Origin: Gammaproteobacteria bacterium
GTDB taxonomy: Bacteria > Pseudomonadota > Gammaproteobacteria > Xanthomonadales > SZUA-36
DNA length: 50,819 nucleotides
Direction of reading: 5' to 3'
NCBI GenBank assembly: GCA_036986175.1
Contig: BTRB01000001.1
Coordinates: forward strand, 1-50,819
The translations under genes and the position numbers were made by a program. Under the pieces are notes generated by a model that did not search any database, was not told the origin of the DNA, and was given only the letters and a program-made list of their open reading frames with translations. Positions 10,726 through 35,685 of the stretch are shown here, piece after piece. Every line of letters starts with the position of its first letter. The first letter of the stretch is position 1.

Positions 10726-10787
10726 TTTATCCGGCACGAAGCTCAATGGCTGCAGTGAGTGGTCCTTCGTTGGTATTTTAATGTACC

Positions 10788-10800
10788 AGGGCCTGTTAAC
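10788..10800. repeat. Third copy (reverse orientation) of the GTTAACAGGCCCT core motif
   Basis: AGGGCCTGTTAAC is the reverse complement of the 13-nt core of the 19-mer found at 19503 and 35686. It lies in the 115-bp divergent region between the giant GT (start 10725) and mrcB (start 10841). Confidence 0.6.
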
Positions 10801-10840
10801 CGGTAGATTATACCAAGACAACGCGCGGTCATTATGGATA

Positions 10841-13237
10841 ATGGTTGAAATGGCCAAGAAAGCAAAAACTAGTGTAAGCAAGACCGGTGTAAAGAAAGCC
10901 AGGACGGCGCGGCGCAACAAGGGACGCAAAAAGGCAGCACAGAAAAAGCCGGGTTTGCCGCATCGTTTGTTACGCATTTCAATGCTGTTGCTGGGTCTTG
11001 GCATTGGTTTGGGCGCGCCGTGGGTCATTTGGCTCGATGTTCAGGTCCGTAGTGAATTTGACGGCCGCAAATGGGACTTACCCAGTCGTGTGTACGCACG
11101 TCCGCTTAGCTTGTATGAAGGTAAAGCCATTTCCAGACGATCCCTGCTGGCGGAACTGAAAGCAGCGGGTTACCGACAGTCTTCAGGTGCCGGTGAGCCC
11201 GGGAGTTTTTCTGTTGACGGTTATCGGTTTGATATCCATCGCCGCGCATTCAGATTTGAAGATGGCGCAAAGCCGGCAGCACGCATTAAGTTGCGACTGA
11301 GCAACGATTCTGTCGTTTACTTACGTGGCGATTCCACTGTTGCAGAGCAGGGCTTGGTACGCCTGGATCCGGCTGAGATAGCCTCGATTTACCCCCTGCA
11401 CGATGAAGATCGCACGTTGGTCGTTCTGCAGGATGTACCGGAATTGCTGGTAACCGGGCTTCAAGCCGTGGAAGACAGGCAATTCAAAAATCATCACGGT
11501 GTCGTGTTACGCAGTATCGGTCGTGCAATGCTGGCCAATGTCAGAGCCGGACGGACGGTGCAGGGTGGCAGTACACTGACCCAGCAACTGGTCAAGAACT
11601 ACTTTCTGACCAGTGAACGTACGCTGGTACGCAAAGTCAACGAAGCGATCATGGCGGTGCTGCTTGAATGGCACTACGACAAGACACAAATTCTCGAGGC
11701 CTATATCAACGAAATTTTCCTCGGCCAGCAGGGCAAATATTCAATCCATGGCTTTGGCCGGGCCAGCGAGTTCTATTTTGACCGGCCATTGAAGGATCTG
11801 GATGTTCAGCAAATAGCTTTACTGGTCGGTATGGTGCGAGGTGCGTCCCTGTATAACCCGAGACGCAACCCGGAACGCTCCCTGCAACGCCGCAACCAGG
11901 TGCTTGATATTTTTGGCAGCACCGGGTTATTGAGTGACAGCGAAGTTGAGATAGCAAAATCACGACCATTGGGCGTAACAGACAAGCCACGTTCCGGTGG
12001 CAGTCGTTACCCCGCTTTTGTAGATATGGTCCGGCGTCAGCTAAAACGTGATTACCGGTCATCCGATTTACGTAGTGCGGGCTTGCGAATTTTTACTACG
12101 CTGGCACCTTCCGAACAGGATTATGCCCAACAGGCAGTATCCGGAGGATTGGACGACTTGCAGCGCCGCGGTTTGCCTGCAGAATTGCAGGGCGCGCTGG
12201 TGCTGGTTGATGTTGCAAGCGGAGAAGTTCGCGCGCTGGTTGGCGATCGTGTGGCCGGGCGTAACTATTTCAACCGTGCGCTGGATGCGCGCAGACAGAT
12301 CGGTTCGGTCATTAAGCCGCTGATTTACCTGCTGGCCCTGGAGCATGTTGATGACTACAACTTGATCACACCGGTAAGAGATGAGCCAGTTTCCTTGCGG
12401 CAAGCGGATGGTTCTGTCTGGTCACCGGTGAACTATGACCACAAATCCCGTGGAGAAATACCACTGTTGGAAGCCCTGGTTCACTCGTATAATCAGGCAA
12501 CCGTAAAGGTGGGCTTTAAGGTCGGTGTTGTTAACCTGATCAGGAAGATCCGGCAACTGGGCGTGAATGCAGAAGTTCCGGCAGTTCCGGCAACGCTTTT
12601 GGGTGCAGTTGAATTGACGCCCATCGAGGTTACTCAGATGTACCAGTCCCTGGCAGCAGGTGGCTACAGCGTGCCGTTGCGCTCGGTTACGGCAGTGCAA
12701 ACACCACAAGGTGAATTGCTCAACCGTTATCCGTTGAGGTTGATGCCATTGGAGCAACGTGAAGCGGTTGCGGTGCTGAACTTTGCCATGACCCAGGTGG
12801 TTGAACAGGGTACTGCGCGGAATTTGCACGACTTGCTGGGAAATGACACATTGATTGCAGGCAAAACCGGCACAACCAATGAACGGCGCGACAGCTGGTT
12901 TGTCGGATATACTCGTGACCGTGTGGCCGTAGCATGGGTGGGGCGCGACGACAATAAACCGGCAGGTGTGACTGGCAGTAACGCAGCGATGCGTGTGTGG
13001 GCGGCCTTGTTCAGGCAATTGCCCATTTTTGCCATTGATTTACGTATGCCCGATGGCGTAAATTTTGTTTGGGTGGATATGCAGCAAAATGCACTCACCG
13101 ATCCGTCATGTCCCGCTGCAGTGCAACTCCCGTTTATAGACGCAAGCGAGCCAGAATCAACGACAGCATGTCTGGACAAACTGGACAGGAAAAACAGAAA
13201 GTCCCTATGGAGAAAGTGGTTTGAAAGTGATGATTAG
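10841..13237 (+). CDS. mrcB: Penicillin-binding protein 1B (bifunctional glycosyltransferase/transpeptidase)
   Basis: A basic N-terminal tail and TM segment come first (KKARTARRNKGRKKAAQKK, LLRISMLLLGLGIGLG). GT51 motifs are AVEDRQFKNHHGV and GGSTLTQQL. Transpeptidase motifs are SVIKP (SxxK), HSYN (SxN) and KTGTT. The start is ATG 10841 or 10850; the ORF-track TTG at 10700 is probably too far upstream. Confidence 0.9.
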   Translation: MVEMAKKAKTSVSKTGVKKARTARRNKGRKKAAQKKPGLPHRLLRISMLLLGLGIGLGAPWVIWLDVQVRSEFDGRKWDLPSRVYARPLSLYEGKAISRRSLLAELKAAGYRQSSGAGEPGSFSVDGYRFDIHRRAFRFEDGAKPAARIKLRLSNDSVVYLRGDSTVAEQGLVRLDPAEIASIYPLHDEDRTLVVLQDVPELLVTGLQAVEDRQFKNHHGVVLRSIGRAMLANVRAGRTVQGGSTLTQQLVKNYFLTSERTLVRKVNEAIMAVLLEWHYDKTQILEAYINEIFLGQQGKYSIHGFGRASEFYFDRPLKDLDVQQIALLVGMVRGASLYNPRRNPERSLQRRNQVLDIFGSTGLLSDSEVEIAKSRPLGVTDKPRSGGSRYPAFVDMVRRQLKRDYRSSDLRSAGLRIFTTLAPSEQDYAQQAVSGGLDDLQRRGLPAELQGALVLVDVASGEVRALVGDRVAGRNYFNRALDARRQIGSVIKPLIYLLALEHVDDYNLITPVRDEPVSLRQADGSVWSPVNYDHKSRGEIPLLEALVHSYNQATVKVGFKVGVVNLIRKIRQLGVNAEVPAVPATLLGAVELTPIEVTQMYQSLAAGGYSVPLRSVTAVQTPQGELLNRYPLRLMPLEQREAVAVLNFAMTQVVEQGTARNLHDLLGNDTLIAGKTGTTNERRDSWFVGYTRDRVAVAWVGRDDNKPAGVTGSNAAMRVWAALFRQLPIFAIDLRMPDGVNFVWVDMQQNALTDPSCPAAVQLPFIDASEPESTTACLDKLDRKNRKSLWRKWFESDD

Positions 13238-15716: not shown

Positions 15717-16371
15717 AACAGCAACCGAAACCTGTTCCGTTGCCCTGGCAGTAGAGGGTGAAGTTCGGCACCGCTACCGGCATGCGCCAAGACAACATGC
15801 CGAACTGCTGTTGCCCTGGGTCCAGGACTTACTGGCAGAAGCCGGTATCAGCTTTGGGTCTGTAGATGCTATTGCATTCAGTCGCGGGCCCGGAAGCTTT
15901 ACCAGCCTGCGCATAGGTATCGGCGTTGTGCAGGGTTTGGCGTGGGCGTCAGATTGCCCGGTGATACCCGTTTCCAGTCTTGCTGCAACGGCGCAAACCG
16001 TAGCAGACAAAGGGATCCAGACCGCACTGGTGGCCCTGGATGCGCGCATGAACGAAGTTTTCACGGGCTTGTTCCGGCTCAACGACAACGGCATCATGAC
16101 AGCGGATGGTGAAGAAAGGGTTTGCGGACCTGGCCAGGTTCAACCGCCGGATGAACCTGAAATCTATGCTGTCGGCGCAGGCTTTGAACGCTATCCCGAA
16201 TTGCAGGAATTAGCCGGGCGCCTGGCTGGAATCCGGGCGGATACCTGGCCTGGCGCTTTATCTGTCCTCAAGCTGGCCGAGGAGTGGTTGCTGGTCCACG
16301 AGGCCCTGCCTGCTGAGATGGCGCAACCCGTATACCTGCGCGACAACGTGGCGCAAAAATCAAAAAAATGA
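15697..16371 (+). CDS. tsaB: tRNA threonylcarbamoyladenosine (t6A) biosynthesis protein TsaB
   Basis: 224-aa ORF overlapping the yoaA end by 20 nt. The N-terminus is MNLLAIETATETCSVAL, followed by SRGPGSFTSLRIG, both typical of TsaB/YeaZ. Confidence 0.85.
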   Translation: MNLLAIETATETCSVALAVEGEVRHRYRHAPRQHAELLLPWVQDLLAEAGISFGSVDAIAFSRGPGSFTSLRIGIGVVQGLAWASDCPVIPVSSLAATAQTVADKGIQTALVALDARMNEVFTGLFRLNDNGIMTADGEERVCGPGQVQPPDEPEIYAVGAGFERYPELQELAGRLAGIRADTWPGALSVLKLAEEWLLVHEALPAEMAQPVYLRDNVAQKSKK

Positions 16372-16791
16372 ATAGCAACTCTCTCCACGCTAAACAGAGC
16401 ACGTTAAAAAATATCAATTAACAGGCTAAATCAAGCCGTACGCAGGTAACAAATTATCAAGTGAACAGCACGGCAACTCCTATTAGAATCGTTCGAAGAT
16501 TAGAGAAGGTGTGGCAATGGGGCACAAAAAAATCACTGAAAATCGGCTTTCAAGAGCATTTTTTGTTAGAATCAGTCCTGCTATGTCAGTCTAGAAGGTA
16601 AATTTGTGGCACAAAAAACAGGTAATTTACAATTAATTAACGATTTCTTTTGTCAGTTCTGCGAGAATTACCTGCTATAAGCATGGGTGGGGAAAAACCA
16701 GGCTTGTGAATGTTGACGGACCAGCAGCCTATCAAACAAAAGCAGAGGCCATTTGGCTAATGAAAAATTGCTACGAACCAGCGAGTTGCAT
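16372..16791. promoter_or_regulatory. Long AT-rich non-coding leader upstream of the lipid operon
   Basis: About 420 bp without a credible ORF and visibly more AT-rich than the flanks. It contains an imperfect direct repeat AGAAGGT-N8/9-GGCACAAAAAA. The exact 11-mer GGCACAAAAAA lies at 16521-16531 and 16608-16618. TTAGAATC occurs twice. An inverted repeat CAGGTAATT / AATTACCTG lies at about 16620 and 16665. A 9-nt partial match TTAACAGGC to the GTTAACAGGCCCT motif lies at 16418-16426. Confidence 0.4.
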
Positions 16792-18561
16792 ATGAATACC
16801 GTGCAACCAACGCCCACTAACGAATCATTGCCGGTAAAAATTGCGGGATACACCAATCTTGTAGATGTGCTTGAGTATGCTGCGCAGGGCGACACCGGTT
16901 ATAACTTCTATGATGGCCGCGGTCGTCTTGGAGACGTACTGTCCTATGCAGATTTGCGTGACCAGGCAAAGGTGCTGGCGCGAAAATTGCTCGGCATGGG
17001 TTGTGAGCGCGGTGCGCGGGTCGGTATTATTGCCGAAACCGAGCCGATGTTTCATCGTTTCTTTTTTGCCTGCCAGTATGCTGGCTTGATCCCCGTTGCT
17101 TTGCCGGCCGGCATTCAACTTGGAGCACACGGCGCGTATGTCGGTCAGGTGCGGCGTATGTTGAAAAGCTGTGGTGCATCAATCGTCGTTGCGCCGGATA
17201 CGCACTCTGGTTTTATGGCGGAGGCCGTGCAAGGTCTTGATTTACTGATGGCTGGTAAGCAGGAAGATTTTGATGCGTTGCCAGAGGCAGTAGTGGAATT
17301 TGTACCACTCGGCGCAGATGATCCAGCTTATCTGCAATATACCTCGGGTAGCACCAGTTTCCCGCGTGGGGTGGAGATAACCCAGCAAACCGTATTGAAC
17401 AACCTGGTGGAGATTGCCCTTTACGGACTGAAGTTGACTGCCGAGGACCGTTTTGTATCGTGGTTGCCTTTTTATCATGACATGGGCCTGGTCGGTTTTA
17501 TCCTGGTTCCGTTGATTGGCCAGTTATCCGTGGATTATCTGGGTTCACGTACATTTGCGATGCGTCCAAGACTTTGGCTGAAAATCCTGTCTGATAACAA
17601 GGGTACGATTTCCTCAGCCCCGACATTCGGTTACGCATTGTGTGCAAAGCGTTTGCGGGCTTCAGACGTTGAAACCTATGACCTCAGTAACTGGCGGGCT
17701 GCGTGTGTAGGCGCCGAGAGAATCAGCCCGGAACCTCTGCAGGAATTTGCAGAAATCCTGCAGCCCAGTGGCTTTGATCAGAATGCGTTTGTTGCTTGCT
17801 ACGGCATGGCCGAATGTGTGCTGGCCACCAGTTTCGCACCGTTGGGGGGAGGGCTGAAAGTCGATGTGGTGGACAGGAGTTTGATGGCTGCTACAGGTGA
17901 AGCCAAACCTTCTGACGGAGATATGCTTTCCACTTCACACTATGTTGATTGCGGCAAGCTTTTACCCGGTTTTGAATTTGCAATTATCAATGATGATGGC
18001 GATATACTGGAAGATCGGCACTGCGGCCATATCTTTCTAAAGGGCTCCAGTGTGATGCGCGGATACTACAACGATGAAGAATCCACACGTAAAGTCCTGT
18101 CTGAGGATGGCTGGTTGAATACCGGTGATATTGGGTATCGCATTGGCGATCACCTGGTCATTACCTCCCGTAGCAAGGATGTCATTATCATCAAGGGGCG
18201 TAATATCTGGCCCTATGACCTCGAAGTGCTGGCCCAGCAGACCGATGGTGTCAAGCTCGGGGGCGTGGCGGCGTTTTCAGTAACTGCCGATGGTGAGGAA
18301 GAACAGGCCATACTCGTGGTAGAAACCAAGGAAAGGGATTTACAAAAGCGCCGGCATATCATTGAAGATATCAGTCGCTCCATTCACGCTCATTTTGGAA
18401 TTAGTGTACTGATTGATCTGACCCGGCGTGGGACACTGCCAAGGACGTCTTCCGGTAAGCTTTCCAGATCCCAATCCAAGCAGGATTATCTGGCACGCCA
18501 GACCTTGCAGAAAGTAGAACAGTCAGCGGCCAGGGCCAAGTCCGACAGGCTGACGGCCTGA
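16792..18561 (+). CDS. Fatty acyl-AMP ligase (FAAL) / acyl-ACP synthetase-like adenylating enzyme
   Basis: AMP-binding core motifs are of FAAL flavour: YLQYTSGSTSFPRGVEITQ, WLPFYHDMGLVGF, NTGDIGY, SRSKDVIIIKGRNIWPYDLE. The ORF-track start is TTG 16753; ATG 16792 (MNTVQPT) is more likely. The stop TGA 18559-18561 lies 1 nt before the next gene. Confidence 0.8.
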   Translation: MNTVQPTPTNESLPVKIAGYTNLVDVLEYAAQGDTGYNFYDGRGRLGDVLSYADLRDQAKVLARKLLGMGCERGARVGIIAETEPMFHRFFFACQYAGLIPVALPAGIQLGAHGAYVGQVRRMLKSCGASIVVAPDTHSGFMAEAVQGLDLLMAGKQEDFDALPEAVVEFVPLGADDPAYLQYTSGSTSFPRGVEITQQTVLNNLVEIALYGLKLTAEDRFVSWLPFYHDMGLVGFILVPLIGQLSVDYLGSRTFAMRPRLWLKILSDNKGTISSAPTFGYALCAKRLRASDVETYDLSNWRAACVGAERISPEPLQEFAEILQPSGFDQNAFVACYGMAECVLATSFAPLGGGLKVDVVDRSLMAATGEAKPSDGDMLSTSHYVDCGKLLPGFEFAIINDDGDILEDRHCGHIFLKGSSVMRGYYNDEESTRKVLSEDGWLNTGDIGYRIGDHLVITSRSKDVIIIKGRNIWPYDLEVLAQQTDGVKLGGVAAFSVTADGEEEQAILVVETKERDLQKRRHIIEDISRSIHAHFGISVLIDLTRRGTLPRTSSGKLSRSQSKQDYLARQTLQKVEQSAARAKSDRLTA

Positions 18562-18562
18562 C

Positions 18563-19489
18563 TTGCCGGTACCTCTTTCATCCGTATTCATCACCGGGGC
18601 AACCGGTTTTATCGGGCAACACCTTGTCACCACCCTGCTGGAACAGGGCTATACCGTGCGGGCAATGGTCCGCCCGGGGAAAGTCACGGATGAACGGATA
18701 CCTGCTCTTTGTGAGCAGTTCCCCGTCGGTTTGACCGATGTAGATGGCCTGACAGCCATCGTAGGTGGTTGCGATGCAGTCATTTATTGCGCAGGCAGCG
18801 TCAGGGGCAGAAACCCGGATGATTTTTCAATTGCTAACATCAACGGTGTCAGGGCGATGCTGGAAGCCCTGGGGCGTGTGCCTGAGGCACCGCCATTGCT
18901 GCTGGTATCATCATTGGCCGCGGGTCGCCCACAACTTTCAGACTATTCCTTCAGCAAGCATGCAGGTGAACAGCTGTTGCTGGACAGGCCTTCGCTGGCC
19001 TGGACCATACTTCGCCCGCCAGCTGTTTATGGACCAGGCGACAGGGAAATGCTGCCGGTATTGAAAATGGCGCGCCGCGGTCTGTTGGTTTATGCCGGCC
19101 CGGCTGATCAACGCTTGTCGCTGCTACACGTCGATGATCTTGCCAGGGCAGTGCTAGCCTGGTTGGCGTCATGGCAAAAATGCCTGCACAAGATATACGC
19201 CATTGATGATGGCAGACCCAACGGCTACGACTGGCCGGCCATTGGGGAAGCGGTAAGCGCCGGAAAATATCGGCAACTTAAATTACCCCGCTTATTGCTG
19301 GATGTCACAGCAAGATCAAACTTGATGGTTGCGAAATTAATGGGCTACCGACCCATGCTGACACCAGGGAAAGTCAGGGAGCTGGTGCAAACGGATTGGC
19401 TGGGTGACAACAGTGATTTCACGGCGGCTACGGGATGGAAACCGAATCTGGATTTGCGCGCCGGGGCAGAGCAACTATTTGGAGCATGA
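18563..19489 (+). CDS. NAD(P)-dependent epimerase/dehydratase-family SDR (CerR-like candidate 3-keto reductase)
   Basis: 308-aa ORF with a TTG start 1 nt after the FAAL stop. It has the Rossmann motif VFITGATGFIGQHLV and catalytic YSFSK (YxxxK). It holds the same position between acyl-ACP synthetase and ACP as Caulobacter CerR, as I recall. Confidence 0.65.
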   Translation: MPVPLSSVFITGATGFIGQHLVTTLLEQGYTVRAMVRPGKVTDERIPALCEQFPVGLTDVDGLTAIVGGCDAVIYCAGSVRGRNPDDFSIANINGVRAMLEALGRVPEAPPLLLVSSLAAGRPQLSDYSFSKHAGEQLLLDRPSLAWTILRPPAVYGPGDREMLPVLKMARRGLLVYAGPADQRLSLLHVDDLARAVLAWLASWQKCLHKIYAIDDGRPNGYDWPAIGEAVSAGKYRQLKLPRLLLDVTARSNLMVAKLMGYRPMLTPGKVRELVQTDWLGDNSDFTAATGWKPNLDLRAGAEQLFGA

Positions 19490-19491
19490 AC

Positions 19492-19520
19492 TAGGGCCTG
19501 ATAAGTGTTAACAGGCCCTA
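19492..19520 (+). terminator. Hairpin after the SDR gene (attenuator/terminator-like or REP-like)
   Basis: TAGGGCCTG (19492-19500) pairs with CAGGCCCTA (19512-19520): a 9-bp stem with an 11-nt loop. No U-run follows. The 3' arm is part of the 19-nt repeat. Confidence 0.3.
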
Positions 19521-19521
19521 A
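19503..19521 (+). repeat. 19-nt exact repeat AAGTGTTAACAGGCCCTAA, copy 1
   Basis: It is identical to 35686-35704 in the same orientation, and the flanking bases differ on both sides. It contains the 8-bp palindrome TGTTAACA. Confidence 0.9.
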
Positions 19522-19626
19522 CACAAAATTGACGTGCATTCCTGTCAACCTGCGCTACAATTCCCCAACCTGCAGGTTCCAAGCCTGCGGCTCCAAAACT
19601 GTAGATAGGTCCTGGTGGAGGATTTT

Positions 19627-19899
19627 TTGAAATTATCGACTGAAGCAGTGGGTAGCAAGCTTGCGGAGATCCTGGCTCAATACCTCAGGAAAAACTGGAT
19701 TGACACACCGGCGATCGAGCGGGAAATTACACCGGCGACCAATATGGTGTCTGATTTGCAACTGGATTCATTCCAGGTAATGGAGTTCATGCTGGAGGTG
19801 GAAGATCATTACGATATCGCTATTGACCTCGAAAGCTTGTCCAATGTCCAGACCATTCTAGACCTTGCCGGCGTGGTCATCGCTGTGCATAACGAATGA
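19627..19899 (+). CDS. Acyl carrier protein (phosphopantetheine attachment site)
   Basis: 90-aa ORF from TTG 19627, preceded by GGAGG (19617-19621); the ORF-track start is GTG 19615. The PP-binding motif is DLQLDSFQVMEFMLEVE, with Ser in LDS. The stop at 19897-19899 lies 4 nt before the next ATG. Confidence 0.8.
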   Translation: MKLSTEAVGSKLAEILAQYLRKNWIDTPAIEREITPATNMVSDLQLDSFQVMEFMLEVEDHYDIAIDLESLSNVQTILDLAGVVIAVHNE

Positions 19900-19903
19900 C
19901 GAT

Positions 19904-21073
19904 ATGTCACTTTTTGAGAAATTTGCCGCTGCGAAGCAGCTTAGAGCAGGCCTTGCCAGTGCAGGCGTGGACCCGACCGGCGTCGTGTTTGATACCCTCA
20001 ACTCGGCAACTGAAGGTGTCGTCAAAGGGCGCAGGACAATACTCGCAGGCACCAACAATTACCTTGGCCTGACTTTTAACCAGGAATGTATTGCTGCCGG
20101 CGTGGCTGCGCTTGAATCACAGGGTACCGGCACGACTGGTTCGCGTATGGCCAATGGCAGTTACGCAGCCCACGGTGCGCTCGAAGCAGAACTGGCTGAT
20201 TTTTTCCAGTGTCCCCATGCCATGGTCTTTTCAACGGGTTATACCGCCAATCTGGGCGTACTCACTGCACTACTGGGCAGGGATGATGCAGTCCTGCTGG
20301 ATTCTGATGCCCACGCGAGTCTTTACGATGGCTGCTACATGAGTGGGGCTGGTATTTTCCGCTTCAAGCACAATGATCTGCAAAGCCTGGAACGTCGTCT
20401 CGTACGGCTCAAGGACCGTGCCAGCGGTTGCCTGATCGTTGTTGAAGGTATGTACAGCGTGCTGGGAGATTGTGCTCCTTTGGCAGAATTTGTTGCACTC
20501 AAGGAACGTTTTGGCGCCAGCCTGCTGGTCGATGAGGCACACTCCCTCGGTGTCTACGGTGAGCGTGGTCGTGGAGTCGCCGAGGCGCAGGGCGTACTGG
20601 ATAAGGTTGATTTCATTGTTGGAACGTTCAGCAAAAGTCTGGGTGCAATGGGTGGATTCTGTGCCAGCAGGCACAATGTGTTGGGATTGTTCCGCTATGT
20701 TTCCCGACCATTCATGTTTACCGCGTCCCCCAGCCCGGCAGTGGTGGCTACCACCCGTGAGGCCCTGAGGCAGTTACGCGCGCGCCCTGAGTTAAAAGAA
20801 ACCTTGTGGGCAAATGCAAGACAGCTTTATAGCGGTTTACAGGACCTTGGCTTTGAGCTCGGGCCGGAAGTCAGCCCGGTTGTGGCAGTGCGGTGTAAGG
20901 ACAGGGAAACAGCACTTGCAAACTGGAACCAACTGTTGGAAGCCGGTGTTTACGTCAACATGATGCTGCCCCCGGCAACACCTGACGGTGGCAGCTTCCT
21001 GCGCAGCAGTGTCAGTGCAGCACACACCCCAGAGCAAATCAAAACCATCATCAGCGCATTTAAAGACCTGTAG
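19904..21073 (+). CDS. spt: Serine palmitoyltransferase-like alpha-oxoamine synthase (PLP-dependent)
   Basis: 389 aa from ATG 19904. The motifs NNYLGLTFNQECIAAGVAALESQGTGTTGSRMANGS and the PLP-lysine context GTFSKSLGAMGGF resemble the Sphingomonas SPT motifs as I recall them (GSRMLNGT, GTFSKSVGTVGGF) more than BioF or Kbl. It is linked to FAAL, SDR and ACP. Confidence 0.75.
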   Translation: MSLFEKFAAAKQLRAGLASAGVDPTGVVFDTLNSATEGVVKGRRTILAGTNNYLGLTFNQECIAAGVAALESQGTGTTGSRMANGSYAAHGALEAELADFFQCPHAMVFSTGYTANLGVLTALLGRDDAVLLDSDAHASLYDGCYMSGAGIFRFKHNDLQSLERRLVRLKDRASGCLIVVEGMYSVLGDCAPLAEFVALKERFGASLLVDEAHSLGVYGERGRGVAEAQGVLDKVDFIVGTFSKSLGAMGGFCASRHNVLGLFRYVSRPFMFTASPSPAVVATTREALRQLRARPELKETLWANARQLYSGLQDLGFELGPEVSPVVAVRCKDRETALANWNQLLEAGVYVNMMLPPATPDGGSFLRSSVSAAHTPEQIKTIISAFKDL

Positions 21074-21077
21074 GAGG

Positions 21078-21094
21078 GAGCAGCTTTGCTGCTC
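21078..21094 (+). terminator. Short hairpin just after the spt stop
   Basis: GAGCAGC-TTT-GCTGCTC has a 7-bp stem and begins 5 nt after TAG 21071-21073. There is no U-tract, so it is weak as an intrinsic terminator. Confidence 0.3.
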
Positions 21095-21096
21095 GC

Positions 21097-21469
21097 GATT
21101 CTATAAGATTTGCACCATCCGAACGCGGCGACACGGGGTACCTGCCCTCTGAGACACGCATGAACCCATCCATGGGGCTCGGGGCCTGCTCCCGGCAGGC
21201 CACGGTCCCAGAGGGCAGGTACCCCATATCCCCGCTTGGTGTTGGGGATTCTGATGGGGTGGGCAATTGCAAGCAGCGGGCCCGCTTCTCCAACACGAGT
21301 CCGCCCCCAACAAGAATCTACTGAGCCCAGCGGGGATACGGGGGGTGTACTCCCTGAGACCGTGGCCTGCCGGGAGCAGGCCCCGAGCCTACAGGACGTA
21401 CTCGTGGCGTGTCTCTGGGGGTACACCCCCCGTGTCCCCGCAGCAGGATGGTGCAAATCTTATAGAATC
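21097..21469. repeat. 373-bp nested giant imperfect palindrome (MITE-like or structured-RNA-like element)
   Basis: Perfect 24-bp terminal inverted repeats are GATTCTATAAGATTTGCACCATCC (21097-21120) and its reverse complement (21446-21469). A perfect 32-bp internal inverted repeat is GGCTCGGGGCCTGCTCCCGGCAGGCCACGGTC (21176-21207) and its reverse complement (21358-21389). The centre is the 12-bp palindrome AGCGGGCCCGCT (21275-21286). Each arm is itself a hairpin. Confidence 0.85.
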
Positions 21470-21487
21470 GTGTCCAGCGGAACTGAT

Positions 21488-21551
21488 GGCCCAGGCCATG
21501 CTCCCCACCGGTTCCCGGTGGCCCAGGCCAGCTTCTCGACCGGTTCCCGGT
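21488..21551. repeat. Tandem direct repeat, 2 x 32 bp
   Basis: GGCCCAGGCCATGCTCCCCACCGGTTCCCGGT (21488-21519) is followed directly by GGCCCAGGCCAGCTTCTCGACCGGTTCCCGGT (21520-21551). Each unit ends in the small hairpin ACCGG-TTC-CCGGT. The second is followed by the T-rich TTACCTTCTTTC. Confidence 0.8.
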
Positions 21552-21586
21552 CTTACCTTCTTTCACCATCTCTCACTTCCTCCCTC

Positions 21587-22864
21587 CTACATTTTCCGTA
21601 CCAACCCCAACATCAATAGCAGGGTCAGCAATGTGCCCACACTTGCTGCTACACCCGGTCCCGGCAAACCCATAACCGGTGTCAGCACGTAAAACAGGCC
21701 GAGGTAAACCACAACACTTAGCATATAAATGCGCAGGATCTGTGCAACCTTGCCCATGGCGTACGCAGCGGCGCGTAATGGTGAACCCGCGAGCTCGAAG
21801 GTCGCCGCCAACAGCATAAGGGTCAGGAGAGATGCGGCCTCGGTATATTCAGGTCCGATGATTTCAAGAATCGGTGCCGCAGCGGGGATTGACAGCAATA
21901 CGAGCAAGAGTCCTGCAGCTCCCGCTGTCTTGACAGCACGGAAACCGAGTTCATGAAACCCTGCTGCTTTGTTGTGCAAAATACGGGTCAGATCAGGGAA
22001 CAGCACTTCACGCAACATCATGGCCGGTTTGCTTAAGATACTTGAGAAATCGCGCGCCAGCCGGAACATGCCTGCGGCAGCCGGTCCCAGCAGATTGCCT
22101 GCGAGCAGAACGGCAAGATGTTTCGGCAGCAGGTCAATATTGGTCTGCCAGTACACCACGGCAATGAAATGACGGAACTCCCCGCTGGTTTTACCAATCT
22201 CCTTCCAACTGCCTCCTTTCCAGATACTACTGTTGAGATGTCTGTAGAATTCAAGGTGGCCCCGTATGAACAACCATGTATTTTCCAGTACGAACGCGGC
22301 TGCCCAAATGGCGATGAAAATACGTATGTCGGCATCCATGGTCCAGGCAATGGCTACACCGGTGATGCGGATCGCCGGACCTACGGTGTAGAAGACACTG
22401 AGCGCATCAAAGCGGTCATACAGCCGCAAAATTCCATTGGGCGTGTTGCTGACAGTGGTCAGCATCACCAGGCTGTACAGGCTCGCCAGCGATATCATCT
22501 CTGCGTCCCAGTACAGGAAACTACCCGCGAAAGACGCTGCTGAAATGCCCAAAAGCGTGGCTGCCGCGGCGGATGTGAGGTCAATCGCTGTAGTGGTGCG
22601 GAACAGTTGTTTCAGGCCTTCATCTTCACCATTTTCATGCTGTGGAACACCGAACCGTACAATCGCCTCGTAGGTTCTGAAATTCAGGATGCCCCTTACT
22701 GCCAGTACATAGGTGTGTAACAGGATGACCAGTCCAAATTCGGTTGCGGACAAGGCATTTGCCATCAGCGCAGTTGCCGCCAGGTTGAAAATTGCCGCAA
22801 TTCCGCGTCCGCGCAAAACCACACCGAAATTTCTCAACACGCGTCCGGAAACAGCTTTATCCAT
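21587..22864 (-). CDS. MOP/Wzx-type polysaccharide or lipid flippase family membrane protein
   Basis: A polytopic hydrophobic ORF with a Wzx-like N-terminus (VLRNFGVVLRGRGIAAIFNLAATALMANALSATEFG). I place the start at ATG 22864, which overlaps the upstream stop as TGATG. The ORF track extends to 22909. Confidence 0.6.
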   Translation of the reverse strand: MDKAVSGRVLRNFGVVLRGRGIAAIFNLAATALMANALSATEFGLVILLHTYVLAVRGILNFRTYEAIVRFGVPQHENGEDEGLKQLFRTTTAIDLTSAAAATLLGISAASFAGSFLYWDAEMISLASLYSLVMLTTVSNTPNGILRLYDRFDALSVFYTVGPAIRITGVAIAWTMDADIRIFIAIWAAAFVLENTWLFIRGHLEFYRHLNSSIWKGGSWKEIGKTSGEFRHFIAVVYWQTNIDLLPKHLAVLLAGNLLGPAAAGMFRLARDFSSILSKPAMMLREVLFPDLTRILHNKAAGFHELGFRAVKTAGAAGLLLVLLSIPAAAPILEIIGPEYTEAASLLTLMLLAATFELAGSPLRAAAYAMGKVAQILRIYMLSVVVYLGLFYVLTPVMGLPGPGVAASVGTLLTLLLMLGLVRKM

Positions 22865-23835
22865 CAGCGGAAAGCCCCCTGCCGGTGGAGCTTCCACAAC
22901 AATGGCCAAGCGAAGATCAAAGGGTGTTTAAGCTGCCGGGCACTTGGCTCGATATAAATACCGGTATGCCGTTCAACTTTCCATAGCAGGTACTGTAGTG
23001 GTCCATTGAAGGTGAACGCAGCTTTGAAAAGCCGTAGCATGGATAACAACTTGCCCTGCACACGGCGTAGCCACCAGCTAACTGAGGAGAATTTCCTGGC
23101 GACGGTACTGCTTTGGTTGCAATACACATCGTGCTGCGTGGTGGTTGACAGGTTTGCGCCGCTCCCGGCCAGCGACCGGGCAATCCCGTCATACCAGGCA
23201 GGATTAAAGTCGTATAGTGATTCAGCACGATTGCTGCTTTCCGTACGCAGCTCACAACGGTAGGTCTGTGAAAGGCCACTGGTCCATAATTCCCGGCTAC
23301 TGAACCGGTCGGGCAGGGAGGGTATCACGTGTTTCACAAAAGTAGCTGAGGCTGTTCCAAATGCATTGACCAAGGCCATTTTGGTTGCCTCGTCACGGGC
23401 AAACAGTACCTCGCAGGGCTGTGCAAAACGTGCCCAGAAATAGGAGTGAAAATCATGCGCCATGGCGTGGCAAAACCGGTCCAGCGTCAGCAGTGCATAT
23501 TTTGCCCGCATATCACTACTTTCTGTACCGGGTCCTGTTACCTTGTGGTGGATGTGGTACACATTGGGTGGAAGCAAGCGGCACATCCATCCTTGCCAGG
23601 GAGAATCCAGCGTACGGTAATCCTCCACCAGCACATAGAAATCCAGCATGGTGTCGCGCTTGCCGCGCAGCCAGGAGCCGTAGACCAGTATGGCCAGCAA
23701 AGCATCACCGTGTTGCTGTTTTATTTTGCTGAGAAGAGGTTCGAGACTGGCATAATCGTCCAGGTTTGCCTGGCACCCGTGGTCCACGCCGCTACCCAGT
23801 TCCACGGGTTTTTGTGGCTTATCATTTGGGTGCAT
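22864..23835 (-). CDS. Tam41/Mmp37-like nucleotidyltransferase (candidate lipid-phosphate cytidylyltransferase)
   Basis: The NTase signature is ILVYGSWLRGKRDTMLDFYVLV (GS ... DxD). Downstream blocks resemble my memory of the Tam41/Mmp37 profile: NVYHI, AKYALLTLDRF, YFWARFAQPCEVLF, SRELWTSGLSQTYRCELR. The start is uncertain: ATG 23835 overlaps the upstream gene by 14 nt, and other in-frame ATGs occur up to 23904. Confidence 0.5.
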   Translation of the reverse strand: MHPNDKPQKPVELGSGVDHGCQANLDDYASLEPLLSKIKQQHGDALLAILVYGSWLRGKRDTMLDFYVLVEDYRTLDSPWQGWMCRLLPPNVYHIHHKVTGPGTESSDMRAKYALLTLDRFCHAMAHDFHSYFWARFAQPCEVLFARDEATKMALVNAFGTASATFVKHVIPSLPDRFSSRELWTSGLSQTYRCELRTESSNRAESLYDFNPAWYDGIARSLAGSGANLSTTTQHDVYCNQSSTVARKFSSVSWWLRRVQGKLLSMLRLFKAAFTFNGPLQYLLWKVERHTGIYIEPSARQLKHPLIFAWPLLWKLHRQGAFR

Positions 23836-25051
23836 AAGCCCCCCGGGTGGCGCCGAAAATGGCATAAGCCCTGGCGTTCGGACCGGTTGCGACATCATCT
23901 TCACTCAGCCACGAGGTCAACGGCCCCCGCGTTAATCTGACCACAAGCGCAAACAACAGACGGAGCACAAGAATCACTGTGGTAAAAACAGTCCAGAACG
24001 TGACGGCAACAAAGCCCCAGTCAGGTCTGGCAATAACGATGCTCAGGGTCAGCAGGATCAGATTGGGATTGCGCCTCGCGGTGATCAGCCTGAACCATGC
24101 ATCGGAAGGACGCCAGGTGAAAATACTACAGTTTCCAAGCAGTGGAAAAATCCCTTCAACAACCCTTCCGACGATGTAAGCAACAATGATAAGCCAGTAC
24201 ATCTGACCCTGGTCAAAACCTATCACTGGTTGAAAATCTTGCAGTGACATACCCCAGTAAATGTACCAGAACGGTGGGTGAAACAGGTCAATGGCATGGT
24301 CGAACAGATGGCCAAACTTGCTGGATTTAATGGTTACACGGGCCAGTTTTCCATCAACGGTGTCGAGAAACGTCATCAACCAACCAGCCAGCAAGCCCCA
24401 GCCGTACTGTCCTTTCCAGAAGAAGTAAGCAGCAGCGATAACCAGCAATAGTCCCGTGCTGGTGACCATATTTGGCGTTATACCGGTATTTGCACACACA
24501 TGTACCATGCGTTTGGCCGGGCGGGGCCAGACAAATTTGGTGACCAGGTCGGTGATTCCACGGTAAGCATTGCCGTACAACTTATTTTCAAGTTCGGTTT
24601 TTCGTTGCGCAGAAATGGTTTCCAGCAAGGGTGTTGTCGACCTGCGCAGGCTTTCATCAAAGGCCGCCATGTCGCCGGGATGAATCCTCTGCAGGCCATG
24701 GGGCATCTCCCGGCTTCGTTCACGGAAATACGCCAGCATCGCGGGCAGGCGATGGCTATCGATAAAAGCTGCTGCAGCAGAATTATCACCCGGATGTGAC
24801 AACACGGCATCCGGGTGGGCTAAAACACCACTGAGGGTGCGGTTCTCGAACAGAAAATTTCCATTGATCAACAATATTCGGCTGTCTTGGGGAATGTTGT
24901 CTTTGTCTATATCATCCAGCCATCGGATGTCGCTCAAATCACCGCTGGATCCCATGCTGATCTCCAGCAACTGACGTTGCAGGCGGCGGGTAGAATCCAG
25001 TCCCCAAAGACGGGTGGAGGAGAGTTCAGAAACAGCTGCGTAGACGGTCAT
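23822..25051 (-). CDS. CDP-alcohol phosphatidyltransferase-family membrane enzyme with a ~190-aa cytoplasmic N-terminal extension
   Basis: It has a perfect family motif DxxDGxxARx8GxxxDxxxD: FLDTVDGKLARVTIKSSKFGHLFDHAIDLF. Several TM segments follow. The N-terminal domain (VYAAVSELSSTRLWGL...) looks like a degenerate NTP-transferase fold lacking the GxGxR loop. Confidence 0.85.
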   Translation of the reverse strand: MTVYAAVSELSSTRLWGLDSTRRLQRQLLEISMGSSGDLSDIRWLDDIDKDNIPQDSRILLINGNFLFENRTLSGVLAHPDAVLSHPGDNSAAAAFIDSHRLPAMLAYFRERSREMPHGLQRIHPGDMAAFDESLRRSTTPLLETISAQRKTELENKLYGNAYRGITDLVTKFVWPRPAKRMVHVCANTGITPNMVTSTGLLLVIAAAYFFWKGQYGWGLLAGWLMTFLDTVDGKLARVTIKSSKFGHLFDHAIDLFHPPFWYIYWGMSLQDFQPVIGFDQGQMYWLIIVAYIVGRVVEGIFPLLGNCSIFTWRPSDAWFRLITARRNPNLILLTLSIVIARPDWGFVAVTFWTVFTTVILVLRLLFALVVRLTRGPLTSWLSEDDVATGPNARAYAIFGATRGAYAPK

Positions 25052-25149
25052 GCTATATTGCGGCTCATATCAAAGATGGGAGTGGTTGGATGGCGGGTTT
25101 TCGATGCCAACGCCAGCATGGATTATACATTGACCGGTAAAAAAAACAG

Positions 25150-26022
25150 ATGCGTCTGATTCACCTGACCGATCCACATCTCAGCAACCTTGACGGGCTA
25201 AAGCTCTCAGCGTTATGGGGCAAGCGCTGGTCCGGTTATGTCTCGTGGCGCAAGAATCGGCAAAAGAAATACCTGCCGGGTGTGCTGGAAAAACTGTGTG
25301 CCGCTGTGAAAGCTGAAAATGCGGATCAGATCCTGTTGACCGGGGACCTGGTCCAAATCGGCCTGGAAAGCGAGATTGGGCAGGCAGCGGAGTGGCTTGC
25401 GGATCTCGGCTCTGCAGACCGGGTTATGCTGGTGCCGGGTAACCATGATGTATATGCCCGGGGAAGCGCTGCAGTGGTTTGTGATTCCTGGGCTGAATAT
25501 CTGTTTCATGGCGGGCAGCCCGGCCACTTCCCGGTGCTGCGAAAACTGGGAAAGCTTAGTCTGATCGGGCTGTCTACCGCCTGTGCCAGCCCGCTGTTCA
25601 TGGCCACTGGAAAACTCGATACGGGTCAGCTTAAAGAACTGGCCCGGTTGCTGGAGACCGCCGCCGCTGAGCAACAACTGACCTGTTTACTGATCCATCA
25701 CCCACCGTTGCCGCGAATGACCAAGTGGCGCAAGGCCCTTGCCAATGCACAGGCTTTGCAGGATGTCCTCGAACGCTTTGTGCCGCCGTTGATTTTTCAC
25801 GGCCACCTGCACCATAACCGTGAGCAGCAATGGGGGAGTTCACGCATTTTTTGTACCGCTGCAGCATCCAGTGTCAGTGATGCTTCATACCGTGTGATCG
25901 ATATTGAAGACGCTGGTGAATGTTGGTCCTTACACATGGCACTGAAGTCAATTGCTGTTGAAAGCGCGGGTGGGGTGGAGTTTCCGGCGGTTGATGAGCA
26001 GAATTGGTTGGTACCCAAATAA
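25150..26022 (+). CDS. Calcineurin-like metallophosphoesterase (CpdA/GpdQ-like)
   Basis: All the canonical blocks are present: LIHLTDPHL, LLTGDLVQIG, LVPGNHD, LIHHPP, FHGHLHHN. Confidence 0.8.
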   Translation: MRLIHLTDPHLSNLDGLKLSALWGKRWSGYVSWRKNRQKKYLPGVLEKLCAAVKAENADQILLTGDLVQIGLESEIGQAAEWLADLGSADRVMLVPGNHDVYARGSAAVVCDSWAEYLFHGGQPGHFPVLRKLGKLSLIGLSTACASPLFMATGKLDTGQLKELARLLETAAAEQQLTCLLIHHPPLPRMTKWRKALANAQALQDVLERFVPPLIFHGHLHHNREQQWGSSRIFCTAAASSVSDASYRVIDIEDAGECWSLHMALKSIAVESAGGVEFPAVDEQNWLVPK

Positions 26023-26040
26023 ACAGCTTGAATCCCGGCC

Positions 26041-27114
26041 TCACAAGCTCCGGTGGCGAATCGCTGCTATCGCCAGCGCGAGCAGGATAAATGGTGGTGT
26101 AAGGATGACCAGTGAAGGGTTCATACCCAATATTCCGGCCAGTTGGCCACTCAGCTGCTGCACCAGGTAAAAACCGATTCCTATCAAACCCCCAAGCATA
26201 ACCCGCTGGCTTGCGGAAACCGACCGGACTGAATTGAGCACGAAAGGCAGCGCCAACAAAGCCATTGCCAACAGGCTGGGCAACAGGCTGATCTGCTGCC
26301 AGAGAACAATCTCATATTCATGGGTATCAAGTTGATTGCGTCTGAGGTTCGCAATGGTTCTGACCAGGTCATTGGGTGCCAACGCCTCAAGCGGCAACAC
26401 CAGGACAGATGCTTGTTCGGCGGACAGCAGGCCTTTCCATAACATGCTTTCCTGCGTCGTCTCCTGTACGGTCGTTTTCTGCAGTTCGCTAAGCACCACG
26501 CCGTTTAACAGCCAGTTATTATCGCCGGCATAATCTGCACTGGATGCCTGTGTTAATTGTGATAAACGGCCTTTGGAATCGGCGGTATAGATTTCGATAT
26601 CAGCCAACGTGCGGTCAAACCTCACTTCATTGACACGGATGAAAAAAGAGCCGTTGCGGGTCCAGAATGCACCTGTACTGCCGGGGCCTTTTTCCGTGCC
26701 CTGCAGGGACTTGCCACGCAGCTGTGCAGCTTCTCTTTCAAACCTGGGCACGACAGAAAACTGCAGGATTGTGATAGAAATACCGAGAAACACCGCCAGC
26801 ACTGTTACGGTTTGCGCAATACGCCGCTTGGACAGGCCGCTGGTGCGAATAGCAATCAGCTCGCGACTATTGGCCATGGCACCCAAACCCAATAACCCGC
26901 CCAGCAGTGCGGTGACCGGCAGCAGTTCAACAATGCGTTTGGGTGTGGTCAAAAAAACGACCATAAAGGCGTCCGGCAAGTTGAAGTTGCCGCTGCCGAC
27001 TTGCTCCAGTTCTTCAGCAAGTGCCATGAAGCTGAACAAGGCGAGTAATAGCAACAAAACCGGTAGGATGCCGGCCAGGAACTGCTGCATGATGTAGCGG
27101 TCAATCTTCAGCAT
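26041..27114 (-). CDS. lptG: LPS export ABC transporter permease LptG
   Basis: 357 aa from ATG 27114 (MLKIDRYIMQQFLAGILP), of the YjgP/YjgQ family. It overlaps the lptF stop by 14 nt. The ORF-track extension to 27291 is unlikely to be translated. Confidence 0.85.
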   Translation of the reverse strand: MLKIDRYIMQQFLAGILPVLLLLLALFSFMALAEELEQVGSGNFNLPDAFMVVFLTTPKRIVELLPVTALLGGLLGLGAMANSRELIAIRTSGLSKRRIAQTVTVLAVFLGISITILQFSVVPRFEREAAQLRGKSLQGTEKGPGSTGAFWTRNGSFFIRVNEVRFDRTLADIEIYTADSKGRLSQLTQASSADYAGDNNWLLNGVVLSELQKTTVQETTQESMLWKGLLSAEQASVLVLPLEALAPNDLVRTIANLRRNQLDTHEYEIVLWQQISLLPSLLAMALLALPFVLNSVRSVSASQRVMLGGLIGIGFYLVQQLSGQLAGILGMNPSLVILTPPFILLALAIAAIRHRSL

Positions 27115-28174: not shown

Positions 28175-28265
28175 ATTTGTGCAGGTTTCGGCTTTTCATT
28201 TCACACTGTGGTTGCCAGTAGTTGTTATGATCGGGCAGCTTGGTACCTTTCAGCAAGAGTTTTGT

Positions 28266-28760
28266 ATGCTAAAAACACTCCTTCGTTGTCAAATTGTACT
28301 ACTTGCCGTGATGGCCCCTCCCGCCGGTGCATCATCGCCGGCAAACCTCGTCATCGAAACGGTCAGTATCAGCGCAGATGAAGCTTACGAGGATATTCAG
28401 CCCGGTATCCTGCATTTTAACGGTAATTTCACTATGCATAGTCGCGACTGGCAACTGGAATCCGTGCACGCAACAGTTTATGGCCAGCCTGACAGACCGG
28501 ACGAAGTATATCTTAAAGGTTCGCCCGCGCGTTTTCTGATCAACCGCAATCAGGGTGATGGGCAAAGCACGGTGGAAGCTGCGGCTCCGGCGGTGGAATA
28601 TCAGCGTTCCACAAATATGCTGAAATTATCCGGTGGCGCTGTGCTCAAGCTGGACCGTGAAGAAATCAGGAGTGAGGTAATCGAATATAATATCAGCACT
28701 GACCGCTACCGGGCCGCCGGCGCTGATGGGGTGATAATTGAAGTCCCGCCCAGAAACTGA
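28266..28760 (+). CDS. Secreted OstA/LptA-fold protein (second LptA-like paralogue)
   Basis: 164 aa from ATG 28266 with a signal peptide MLKTLLRCQIVLLAVMAPPAGA. The mature part aligns by eye with E. coli LptA block by block: ISADEA...LHFNGNFTM, VYLKGSPARFL, AAPAVEYQRSTNMLKLSGGAVL, IRSEVIEYNI. It is divergent from lptF. The canonical lptA is at 41347-42006. Confidence 0.6.
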   Translation: MLKTLLRCQIVLLAVMAPPAGASSPANLVIETVSISADEAYEDIQPGILHFNGNFTMHSRDWQLESVHATVYGQPDRPDEVYLKGSPARFLINRNQGDGQSTVEAAAPAVEYQRSTNMLKLSGGAVLKLDREEIRSEVIEYNISTDRYRAAGADGVIIEVPPRN

Positions 28761-28784
28761 TTGTGACTAATTGAGAACGCCCCC

Positions 28785-29513: not shown

Positions 29514-29566
29514 TCAGGAGTTCCTTTTTTACGGGAAAAAGTGCTGCATTAAAACACGATTTCAGC

Positions 29567-29585
29567 ATTCTGCAAAATGCAGAAT
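29567..29585. promoter_or_regulatory. Perfect 19-bp palindrome, candidate operator
   Basis: ATTCTGCA-AAA-TGCAGAAT lies in the 134-bp divergent region between the NTP-transferase (start 29513, minus strand) and the GMC oxidoreductase (start 29648, plus strand). Confidence 0.4.
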
Positions 29586-35679: not shown

Positions 35680-35685
35680 GCTGGC

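Follow-up and report, generated by a model that had tools for sequence, protein, structure and literature searches.

Positions 16,792 to 21,073 of contig BTRB01000001.1 (GenBank assembly GCA_036986175.1), from an uncultured gammaproteobacterium, hold four co-directional genes on the forward strand that encode a fatty acyl-AMP ligase (FAAL), an extended short-chain dehydrogenase/reductase (SDR), a small acyl carrier protein (ACP) and an alpha-oxoamine synthase. We read these genes as the aasR-cerR-acpR-spt core of the proteobacterial ceramide pathway and as the first unit of a ~19-kb island (16792-35679, delimited by family scans of the neighbouring genes) that likely produces an anionic, ceramide-phosphoglycerate-like lipid of the outer membrane, as in Caulobacter. 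The probability of this reading is, in our estimate, roughly 0.88. Throughout, "the window" denotes the whole stretch of the contig that was analysed, positions 1 to 50,819. An original prediction made from the letters of the window had proposed the same gene set and order, and open reading frames (ORFs) together with protein family matches bear it out, as follows.

16792-18561, forward strand: aasR, acyl-ACP synthetase of the FAAL type, 589 aa; start ATG 16792, stop TGA 18559-18561.
18563-19489, forward strand: cerR, extended-SDR (epimerase/dehydratase family) reductase, 308 aa; TTG start.
19627-19899, forward strand: acpR, specialised acyl carrier protein, 90 aa; alternative GTG start at 19615, stop TGA 19897-19899.
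19904-21073, forward strand: spt, serine palmitoyltransferase (SPT), 389 aa; ATG start.

Two of the junctions within this block are extremely short, at exactly the spacings first proposed: a single nucleotide (c, 18562) lies between the aasR stop codon and the cerR start at 18563, and four nucleotides (cgat) lie between the acpR stop codon and the spt start at 19904. The TTG at 18563 is the sole possible start of cerR, since the codons ahead of the Rossmann motif GATGFIG, which starts at codon 12, include neither ATG nor GTG. For acpR, a GGAG Shine-Dalgarno sequence 6-7 nt 5' of TTG 19627 is conserved in the alignment with related loci, where the start codon is ATG in three relatives. On this conserved pattern the start was reassigned from GTG 19615, and 19627-19899 is the most likely extent of the gene. 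The spacer between cerR and acpR is considerably longer (~137 nt). With a hairpin and a conserved -10-like motif inside this spacer, the block consists of two pairs of tightly coupled genes and is not demonstrably transcribed as one unit. The arrangement itself is far beyond chance, given family E-values of 1e-209 to 1e-11, recovery of the same four-gene order in at least 12 related loci from metagenome-assembled genomes (MAGs), and purifying selection on all four genes, with ratios of nonsynonymous to synonymous substitution (dN/dS) of 0.04-0.13 against three relatives (0.04-0.07 for aasR).

Several lines of evidence support assignment of the alpha-oxoamine synthase as an SPT-type enzyme, predicted to condense L-serine with a long-chain acyl thioester. 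With 600.5 bits, Spt clears the 500-bit cutoff of NF047599, the NCBIfam equivalog for serine palmitoyltransferase, and the NCBI pipeline would therefore be expected to give it that name. The NCBIfam model named SerpalmtaseBetaP scores above the one named SerpalmtaseAlphaP (600 versus 460 bits). When compared with all sequences of the PDB, Spt aligned best, and over its full length, with the SPTs of Sphingomonas wittichii and S. paucimobilis (2jg2, 2x8u; E 1e-119), followed at lower rank by Sphingobacterium SPT (5e-78), Kbl (1e-66), cysteate acyltransferase (8e-53), BioF (1e-47) and CqsA (1e-35). The window enzyme shares the fold family and the catalytic His/Asp/His/Lys/Arg residues of the Sphingomonas SPTs, with H137, D210, H213, K244 and R367 corresponding to H159, D231, H234, K265 and R390 of the S. 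paucimobilis enzyme. One difference is R378 of the S. paucimobilis PPATP loop, which is Leu in the window protein and also Leu in the enzymatically active E. coli Spt. The Spt translation contains both peptide motifs on which the SPT-type assignment was first based, GSRMANGS and GTFSKSLGAMGGF, and that assignment is upheld by the equivalog match.

Assignment of this enzyme to another branch of the superfamily, as a BioF-, Kbl-, HemA- or CqsA/LqsA-type synthase or as a cysteate acyltransferase of sulfonolipid (capnine) synthesis, is highly improbable. Many close homologues carry the JGI name 8-amino-7-oxononanoate synthase, and the BioF and Kbl models do match Spt with E-values of 5e-97 and 1e-92, as expected within one superfamily. 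Nonetheless, all of these sister families fall below their curated cutoffs (BioF 324.9 bits against 426, Kbl 310.5 against 460, HemA 226 against 339, and the CqsA/LqsA type 203 against 428), whereas the SPT equivalog exceeds its own. The best structural database matches, which a mistaken assignment would place with BioF, glycine C-acetyltransferase or CqsA/LqsA, lie with the Sphingomonas SPTs instead, and the cysteate-C-fatty acyltransferase ranks far behind them. Furthermore, the neighbourhood lacks biotin genes and contains genes resembling those for bacterial ceramide synthase (bCerS), CerR, AcpR and AasR. The oxononanoate synthase label in JGI/IMG, like the name phosphatidylglycerophosphate synthase given there to the CDP-alcohol phosphotransferase described below, is likely a systematic mis-annotation in metagenome data. 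An ORF of 168 aa on the reverse strand at 20950-21456 was dismissed as a gene; it has no family match and resembles sequences in relatives solely where it runs antisense to spt (24% coverage).

The remaining three core proteins were assigned in the same manner. AasR passes the NCBIfam model NF006624 (fatty acyl-AMP ligase) with 697.6 bits against a cutoff of 600, and its best PDB match is 3pbk, deposited as a fatty acyl-adenylate ligase (E 6e-143). CerR matches the Pfam Epimerase family (E 2e-24) and possesses the expected GxxGxxG and YxxxK motifs as GATGFIG at residue 12 and YSFSK at residue 128. AcpR matches Pfam PP-binding (E 1.6e-8), and its serine attachment motif DLQLDS aligns with DLGLES of E. 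coli AcpR. By gene content, with the ACP gene immediately 5' of spt and an AasR-type FAAL encoded alongside, the window genes resemble the rhodobacterial tripartite AasR/AcpR/Spt system of Padilla-Gomez (2022), which is characterised by selective acylation of AcpR, and not of CoA or AcpP, by AasR. FAAL-ACP loading modules are also common in natural-product clusters, and AasR matches loading domains of nonribosomal peptide synthetases (NRPSs) and polyketide synthases (PKSs), so a FAAL-ACP-oxoamine synthase trio could in principle make a secondary metabolite such as a lipo-amino alcohol or a polyketide-like product. That origin is very unlikely here: the window contains no PKS, NRPS, thioesterase or typical tailoring genes, the best relatives of the FAAL are the AasR of the E. 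coli spt cluster and PDB 3pbk, and the genes are embedded among Lpt-type exporters and lipid head-group enzymes at a chromosomal position conserved across many species.

The steps of the ceramide pathway proposed for this organism, including each enzymatic reaction, the order of acylation and reduction, the head-group chemistry and the export route, are modelled on characterised homologues. AasR would adenylate a free long-chain fatty acid and load it onto the dedicated carrier AcpR, after which Spt, a pyridoxal 5'-phosphate (PLP) enzyme with K244 as the presumed Schiff-base lysine, would condense acyl-AcpR with L-serine to give 3-oxosphinganine. A bCerS/YghO-type GNAT acyltransferase (32057-33202, 11 kb downstream) would N-acylate this intermediate, and CerR would then reduce the 3-oxo group to yield dihydroceramide. 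A head group would be added by a module comprising a Tam41-like nucleotidyltransferase, a CDP-alcohol phosphotransferase, two further nucleotidyltransferases and a metallophosphoesterase. Export would involve a Wzx-like flippase, LptF/LptG-type permeases and an extra LptA/C-like protein.

The proteins of E. coli BL21(DE3) provided an experimentally anchored comparison set. Their cluster (ECD_02850-02854; locus L028, NC_012971 2990834-2999842) was located by a DNA search of complete E. coli genomes that hit genes annotated spt, and it consists of yghO on the reverse strand, a tightly coupled FAAL-epimerase/dehydratase-ACP-spt block on the forward strand in an order and orientation identical to those of the window, and lptG, lptF and a flippase-like gene on the reverse strand. 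In BLASTP comparisons the window proteins are 43% identical to AasR (ECD_02851, E 9e-154), 35% to the reductase (ECD_02852, E 9e-58), 41% over 44 aa to AcpR (ECD_02853, E 2e-9) and 56% to Spt (E 2e-158). Reverse tblastn searches from E. coli recovered the aasR, reductase and spt genes of the window; the short AcpR gave no reverse match at E 1e-3. E. coli Spt, AcpR and AasR jointly make 3-oxosphinganine, and these SPTs prefer acyl-AcpR as substrate (Padilla-Gomez, PMC9386255); the same study equates ECD_02852 with Caulobacter CC_1164 and YghO (ECD_02850) with CC_1154. The ceramide core, the LptF/G paralogues and the flippase are common to the E. coli cluster and the window, whereas the head-group genes differ. 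In place of the CDP-alcohol/Tam41/nucleotidyltransferase module, the E. coli cluster carries YtfJ-family, two hypothetical or ATP-binding, and P-loop (yghR/S/T) genes, and those E. coli genes lack homologues in the window, as do the head-group genes of the window in the E. coli cluster.

The island also corresponds, domain by domain, to a region of the Caulobacter genome. The original prediction had named CCNA_01220-01223 as encoding Spt, ACP, CerR and an acyl-ACP synthetase, and the literature agrees, with spt at CCNA_01220, acp at 01221, cerR at 01222, the ACP synthetase at 01223 and bcerS at 01212 (Zik 2022, PMC9393093; Olea-Ozuna 2024, PMC11324152). The C. crescentus cluster CC_1152-CC_1168 (CCNA_01210-01226) contains the same four core functions in the same order (CC_1165-1164-1163-1162), and further domain-level counterparts occur in the window for CC_1152, 1153, 1154, 1155, 1156, 1158, 1159, 1161, 1166 and 1168. 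Judged by the published domain descriptions (PMC11324152), about 14 of the 17 Caulobacter genes have such a counterpart in the island. Absent from the island are counterparts of the kinase CpgB (CC_1160), the HIT protein (CC_1157) and CC_1167. Conversely, the window adds a GMC oxidoreductase and a large glycosyltransferase, places its bCerS-like gene 11 kb from spt on the opposite strand, and belongs to a gammaproteobacterial host.

Contiguous spt-acpR-cerR-aasR-cerS clusters, with orthologues of CC_1152, 1153, 1159 and 1161 and of LptF2/G2, have also been described in Azotobacter vinelandii (Avin_44240-44370) and Pseudomonas luteola (PMC11324152). According to the published tables, these two clusters possess the CC_1160 kinase and lack CC_1158 and CC_1166, whereas the window shows the reverse pattern, with phosphoesterase and flippase present and the kinase absent. 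In 2022, spt was described as generally associated with a dedicated ACP and an acyl-ACP synthetase in alpha-, beta- and gammaproteobacteria (abstract of PMC9386255). We found the four-gene block at a coverage of at least 80% in 4068 of 5426 complete E. coli genomes, where all records listed carry the annotations 'fatty acyl-AMP ligase', 'NAD-dependent epimerase/dehydratase family protein', 'acyl carrier protein' and 'spt: serine palmitoyltransferase'. The original suggestion that sphingolipid synthesis has been described in only a few gammaproteobacterial lineages does not survive this general association, the Azotobacter and Pseudomonas clusters and the E. coli census. The four-gene core has been known for this pathway since 2021-2022, and this locus is a solid but ordinary new example that opens no new mechanism.

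Behind the core, the island continues with the following genes.

21587-22909, reverse strand: MOP/Wzx-type flippase-like membrane protein (CC_1166-like); Pfam Polysacc_synt 24.8 bits, gathering score 28.2.
22864-23835, reverse strand: Tam41-like nucleotidyltransferase (CpgC/CC_1161-like), ~323 aa; the ORF extends to 23904.
23822-25051, reverse strand: CDP-alcohol phosphotransferase with an N-terminal cytoplasmic domain (CpgA/CC_1159-like), 409 aa; Pfam PF01066.
25150-26022, forward strand: calcineurin-like metallophosphoesterase (CC_1158-like); Pfam Metallophos E 5e-15; collinear in relatives.
26041-27291, reverse strand: LptG-type ABC permease (of the CC_1155/CC_1156 pair); TIGR04408 300 bits, cutoff 240, residues 63-413; true start probably near 27110.
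27101-28174, reverse strand: LptF-type ABC permease (of the CC_1155/CC_1156 pair); TIGR04407 308 bits, cutoff 230.
28179-28760, forward strand: extra LptA/LptC (OstA)-like periplasmic protein (CC_1168-like); Pfam LptD_N E 4e-7; LptA model 50.8 bits, under the cutoff of 71.7.
28785-29513, reverse strand: nucleotidyltransferase (CC_1152-like); Pfam NTP_transferase and NTP_transf_3, weak IspD match.
29585-31252, forward strand: GMC-family FAD oxidoreductase; Pfam GMC_oxred_C E 7e-23; no counterpart in the Caulobacter or E. coli cluster.
31238-32044, reverse strand: MobA/CofC-like nucleotidyltransferase (CC_1153-like); Pfam NTP_transf_3 E 3e-7.
32057-33202, reverse strand: bCerS/YghO-type GNAT N-acyltransferase (CC_1154-like), 381 aa; Pfam Acetyltransf_1 E 2.5e-8; collinear in relatives.
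33229-35679, reverse strand: two-module GT4-type glycosyltransferase, 816 aa; no Caulobacter or E. coli counterpart; variable edge gene of the island.

The candidate ceramide synthase is well matched, as the GNAT protein is 49% identical to E. coli YghO along its full length, over 373 aa (E 2e-140). Among the putative export genes, the flippase-like protein is 26% identical to the corresponding protein of the E. coli spt cluster (E 8e-37), and the island LptF scores 144 bits against the LptF of that cluster, which makes it slightly nearer to this copy than to the canonical LptF of E. coli, at 100 bits. The LptA/C-like gene likely starts at ATG 28266, from which the product would have a signal-peptide-like N-terminus, and it is a paralogue, since canonical lptC and lptA lie elsewhere in the window (41347-42544). 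The presence of LptF, LptG and LptA-like genes in the island, with a canonical kdsDC-lptCAB operon 10 kb away, raises the question of whether the core serves lipopolysaccharide (LPS) or lipid A acylation as a special ACP system resembling AcpXL. We regard that role as barely credible: the island lacks Lpx-type acyltransferases, Spt and the bCerS- and CerR-like enzymes are specific to sphingolipid synthesis, and Lpt paralogues are a described feature of the Caulobacter sphingolipid cluster (LptC2/F2/G2), with copies of lptF and lptG in the E. coli spt cluster as well.

For a ceramide product, the head group is the least certain part of the pathway. The Tam41-like protein has no curated family match, reaches no better than E 0.079 on Pfam Tam41, and has 2393 homologues that are all labelled hypothetical and carry no Pfam domains. 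Its AlphaFold2 model (pLDDT 69) retrieves as top PDB folds the Tam41 CDP-diacylglycerol synthases 6ig2 and 7ecd (E 9e-6 to 6e-5, TM scores 0.42-0.54), a fold that, with moderate confidence, is in line with CpgC/CC_1161 being Tam41-like. The CDP-alcohol phosphotransferase retains an intact DxxDGxxAR-x8-G-x3-D-x3-D signature (residues 230-255), and its fold, N-terminal domain included, matches AF2299 (4o6n) and IPCT-DIPPS (4mnd) over ~390 columns (E 4e-10). The two further nucleotidyltransferases resemble Caulobacter proteins in their published domains: CC_1153 is described as MobA/CofC-like (PMC11324152), and CC_1152 is listed with PF00483 and with 'PF1128' and 'PF2804' (S1 Text, PMC11324152), which we read as PF01128 (IspD) and PF12804 (NTP_transf_3).

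The Caulobacter ceramide kinase CpgB has an LCB5 domain and a GGDG motif (PMC10331486). No island protein matched a DAGK-type family when this type of kinase (LCB5/DAG-kinase, GGDG) was sought, and neither the 50-kb window nor the sequence up to 10 kb from the cluster in 26 related loci held a plausible ORF with an in-frame GGDG motif. A hidden kinase in the N-terminal domain of the CDP-alcohol phosphotransferase was ruled out because this domain folds like the cytoplasmic domain of AF2299/IPCT. It is possible, though rather unlikely, that the core makes ceramide while the final lipid differs from Caulobacter-type ceramide phosphoglycerate (CPG), bearing instead a glycosyl, phospho-inositol, phospho-glycerol or oxidised head group whose phospho-alcohol would be moved from a nucleoside diphosphate (NDP)-activated donor by the CDP-alcohol phosphotransferase, with no ceramide kinase involved. 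Besides the lack of a CpgB-type kinase in the window and related loci, such a product would suit the GMC oxidoreductase and the 816-aa glycosyltransferase, which have no Caulobacter counterparts, the weak matches of the CDP-alcohol phosphotransferase to PIP-synthase models together with its AF2299/IPCT-DIPPS fold and cytidylyltransferase-like N-terminal domain, and the variability of the head-group genes among relatives, two of which (L025 and L026) lack this phosphotransferase and the flippase. Against it, five of the six Caulobacter CPG2 genes (CC_1152, 1153, 1158, 1159 and 1161) have domain-level counterparts in the island, and the rest of the genome could supply a kinase. A ceramide-phosphoglycerate-like product is thus our default inference, although a head group of another kind, or one attached without a kinase, is realistically possible.

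A more specific scheme, which we consider doubtful, is that this widespread marine lineage builds an anionic phosphosphingolipid entirely without a kinase. In this scheme the two or three nucleotidyltransferases would supply NDP-activated donors, the CDP-alcohol phosphotransferase would place the activated groups directly on ceramide, the GMC oxidoreductase would perhaps oxidise the product, and LptF/G, as dedicated paralogues or as the cell's only LptFG shared with LPS, would export it.

Several considerations weigh against the proposed reading of the core and island. The host is uncultured, and the pathway is predicted from its genes. The correspondence to CCNA_01220-01223 is traced through E. 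coli homologues, through shared domains and through orthology tables in the literature. The 137-nt spacer, with its hairpin and promoter-like motif, makes transcription of the four genes as one unit uncertain. Within the island, the Pfam match of the flippase lies under the gathering score, the Tam41-like assignment depends on a structural model of moderate confidence, and LptF and LptG, both of which pass the canonical TIGRFAM cutoffs, may be either dedicated second copies or the cell's only pair. Without a local CpgB, moreover, the Caulobacter head-group route is not transferable as it stands, and a copy elsewhere in the genome is possible.

Three non-coding elements accompany the core.

19495-19517, forward strand: hairpin GGCCTG-ataagtgttaa-CAGGCC, 23 nt, directly 3' of the cerR stop; not conserved in relatives.
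19548-19561, forward strand: motif ACCTGCGCTACAAT with a -10-like TACAAT; shared by 8 related loci in a spacer that otherwise does not align.
21081-21550, unstranded: nested palindrome of ~400 nt plus two 32-nt tandem repeats (21487-21550), in the gap that separates the convergent spt and flippase genes.

The ACCTGCGCTACAAT motif has a single site in the window and is missing from distant relatives with short spacers; it probably serves acpR-spt as an internal promoter or regulatory site. A search upstream of aasR for a second copy of this kind gave a match count not above chance, and a generic promoter/terminator scan of 16300-21700 gave counts not above those of shuffled sequence. The 23-nt hairpin may be a small repeated extragenic palindrome; a near-copy with 92% identity occurs at 35681-35704, between the large glycosyltransferase gene and mgtE. 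Both arms of the nested palindrome (21081-21259 and 21306-21485) enclose a 31-nt hairpin, and the convergent gap as a whole (21074-21586) has a folding energy of -326 kcal/mol. Related genomes have only ~85 nt at this position, with a 53-nt partial match in L005 only, and the palindrome would therefore be a genome-specific insertion resembling a miniature inverted-repeat transposable element (MITE) or a repetitive extragenic palindrome (REP). The region likely also acts as a bidirectional terminator. No RNA family of Rfam reached its gathering threshold in the window, and tRNA genes are absent from the island and its immediate surroundings.

At E < 1e-50, Spt has more than 8000 relatives in the database. 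The top 120 clusters are 80-97% identical to it and all metagenomic, several being labelled Gammaproteobacteria or Xanthomonadales MAGs. Scanning species-representative genomes with the CDP-alcohol phosphotransferase retrieved 24 loci, all from uncultured gammaproteobacterial MAGs, and the order labels of related genome bins are inconsistent (Lysobacterales/Xanthomonadales, Oceanospirillales). The island keeps its gene order in more than 10 uncultured gammaproteobacterial MAG species. By tblastn synteny, the whole of it is collinear and has the same tsaB/yoaA flank in the closer loci L001, L003, L004, L005 and L022, and also in L025 and L026. In the distant loci L016, L017 and L019, spt lies beside lptF/G and the phosphotransferase and the four-gene block is not kept. 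The GMC oxidoreductase gene occurs in most related loci and is absent from L012, L016 and L020, and the 816-aa glycosyltransferase gene is found in L001 and L005 and is absent from L003, where mgtE abuts the GNAT gene.

Gene content in the two remaining collinear loci (11696-18916 in L025, 11975-18763 in L026) differs in part from that of the window: aasR-cerR-acpR-spt and the Tam41-like gene are kept, the CDP-alcohol phosphotransferase and flippase genes are absent, and a TonB-dependent receptor gene lies between the LptA-like and nucleotidyltransferase genes. Because of these differences, the head-group and export modules would appear to vary within the lineage. The even GC content across the island gives no sign of recent horizontal transfer, and, together with the low dN/dS values and the lack of tRNA genes, suggests that the island is old and vertically kept in the lineage. 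A literature search on sphingolipids in Woeseiaceae returned nothing relevant.

Elsewhere in the window, a canonical kdsD-kdsC-lptC-lptA-lptB-rpoN-(gap)-ptsN-rapZ operon occupies 37180-44052 on the reverse strand. It begins less than 2 kb past the island end at 35679, with mgtE between, which makes the LPS-transport and putative sphingolipid-transport genes near neighbours. At 6301-11028, also on the reverse strand and upstream of PBP1b, a 1575-aa multi-domain glycosyltransferase (GT4 + GT2 + GT4, with an stp1-like C-terminus) is encoded, and a similar gene for a 1476-aa glycosyltransferase has the same position in L025. Between pgeF/yfiH and relA, a homologue of the uroporphyrinogen-decarboxylase-like methyltransferases MtaA/CmuA (1861-3009, forward strand) stands beside a gene for a GntG/threonine-aldolase-like PLP enzyme (3030-4079, reverse strand). 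Finally, a 343-aa ORF at 47389-48420 on the forward strand matches no NCBIfam family at E <= 1e-5.

The value added by this example is modest, and lies in the lineage, the complete island and the kinase-less variant of the head-group module. With it, an uncultured marine gammaproteobacterial group joins the likely sphingolipid producers. Metagenomes represent this group well, in that at least 120 protein clusters share 80% or more identity with Spt. The island may be of use in reading environmental sphingolipid signals, in correcting the BioF annotations of JGI and in comparing head-group modules, for which E. coli, sharing the ceramide core, LptFG and flippase, offers one differing set. For the lineage itself, a Caulobacter-style layout of synthesis, head-group and Lpt-like export genes appears to have been vertically maintained.

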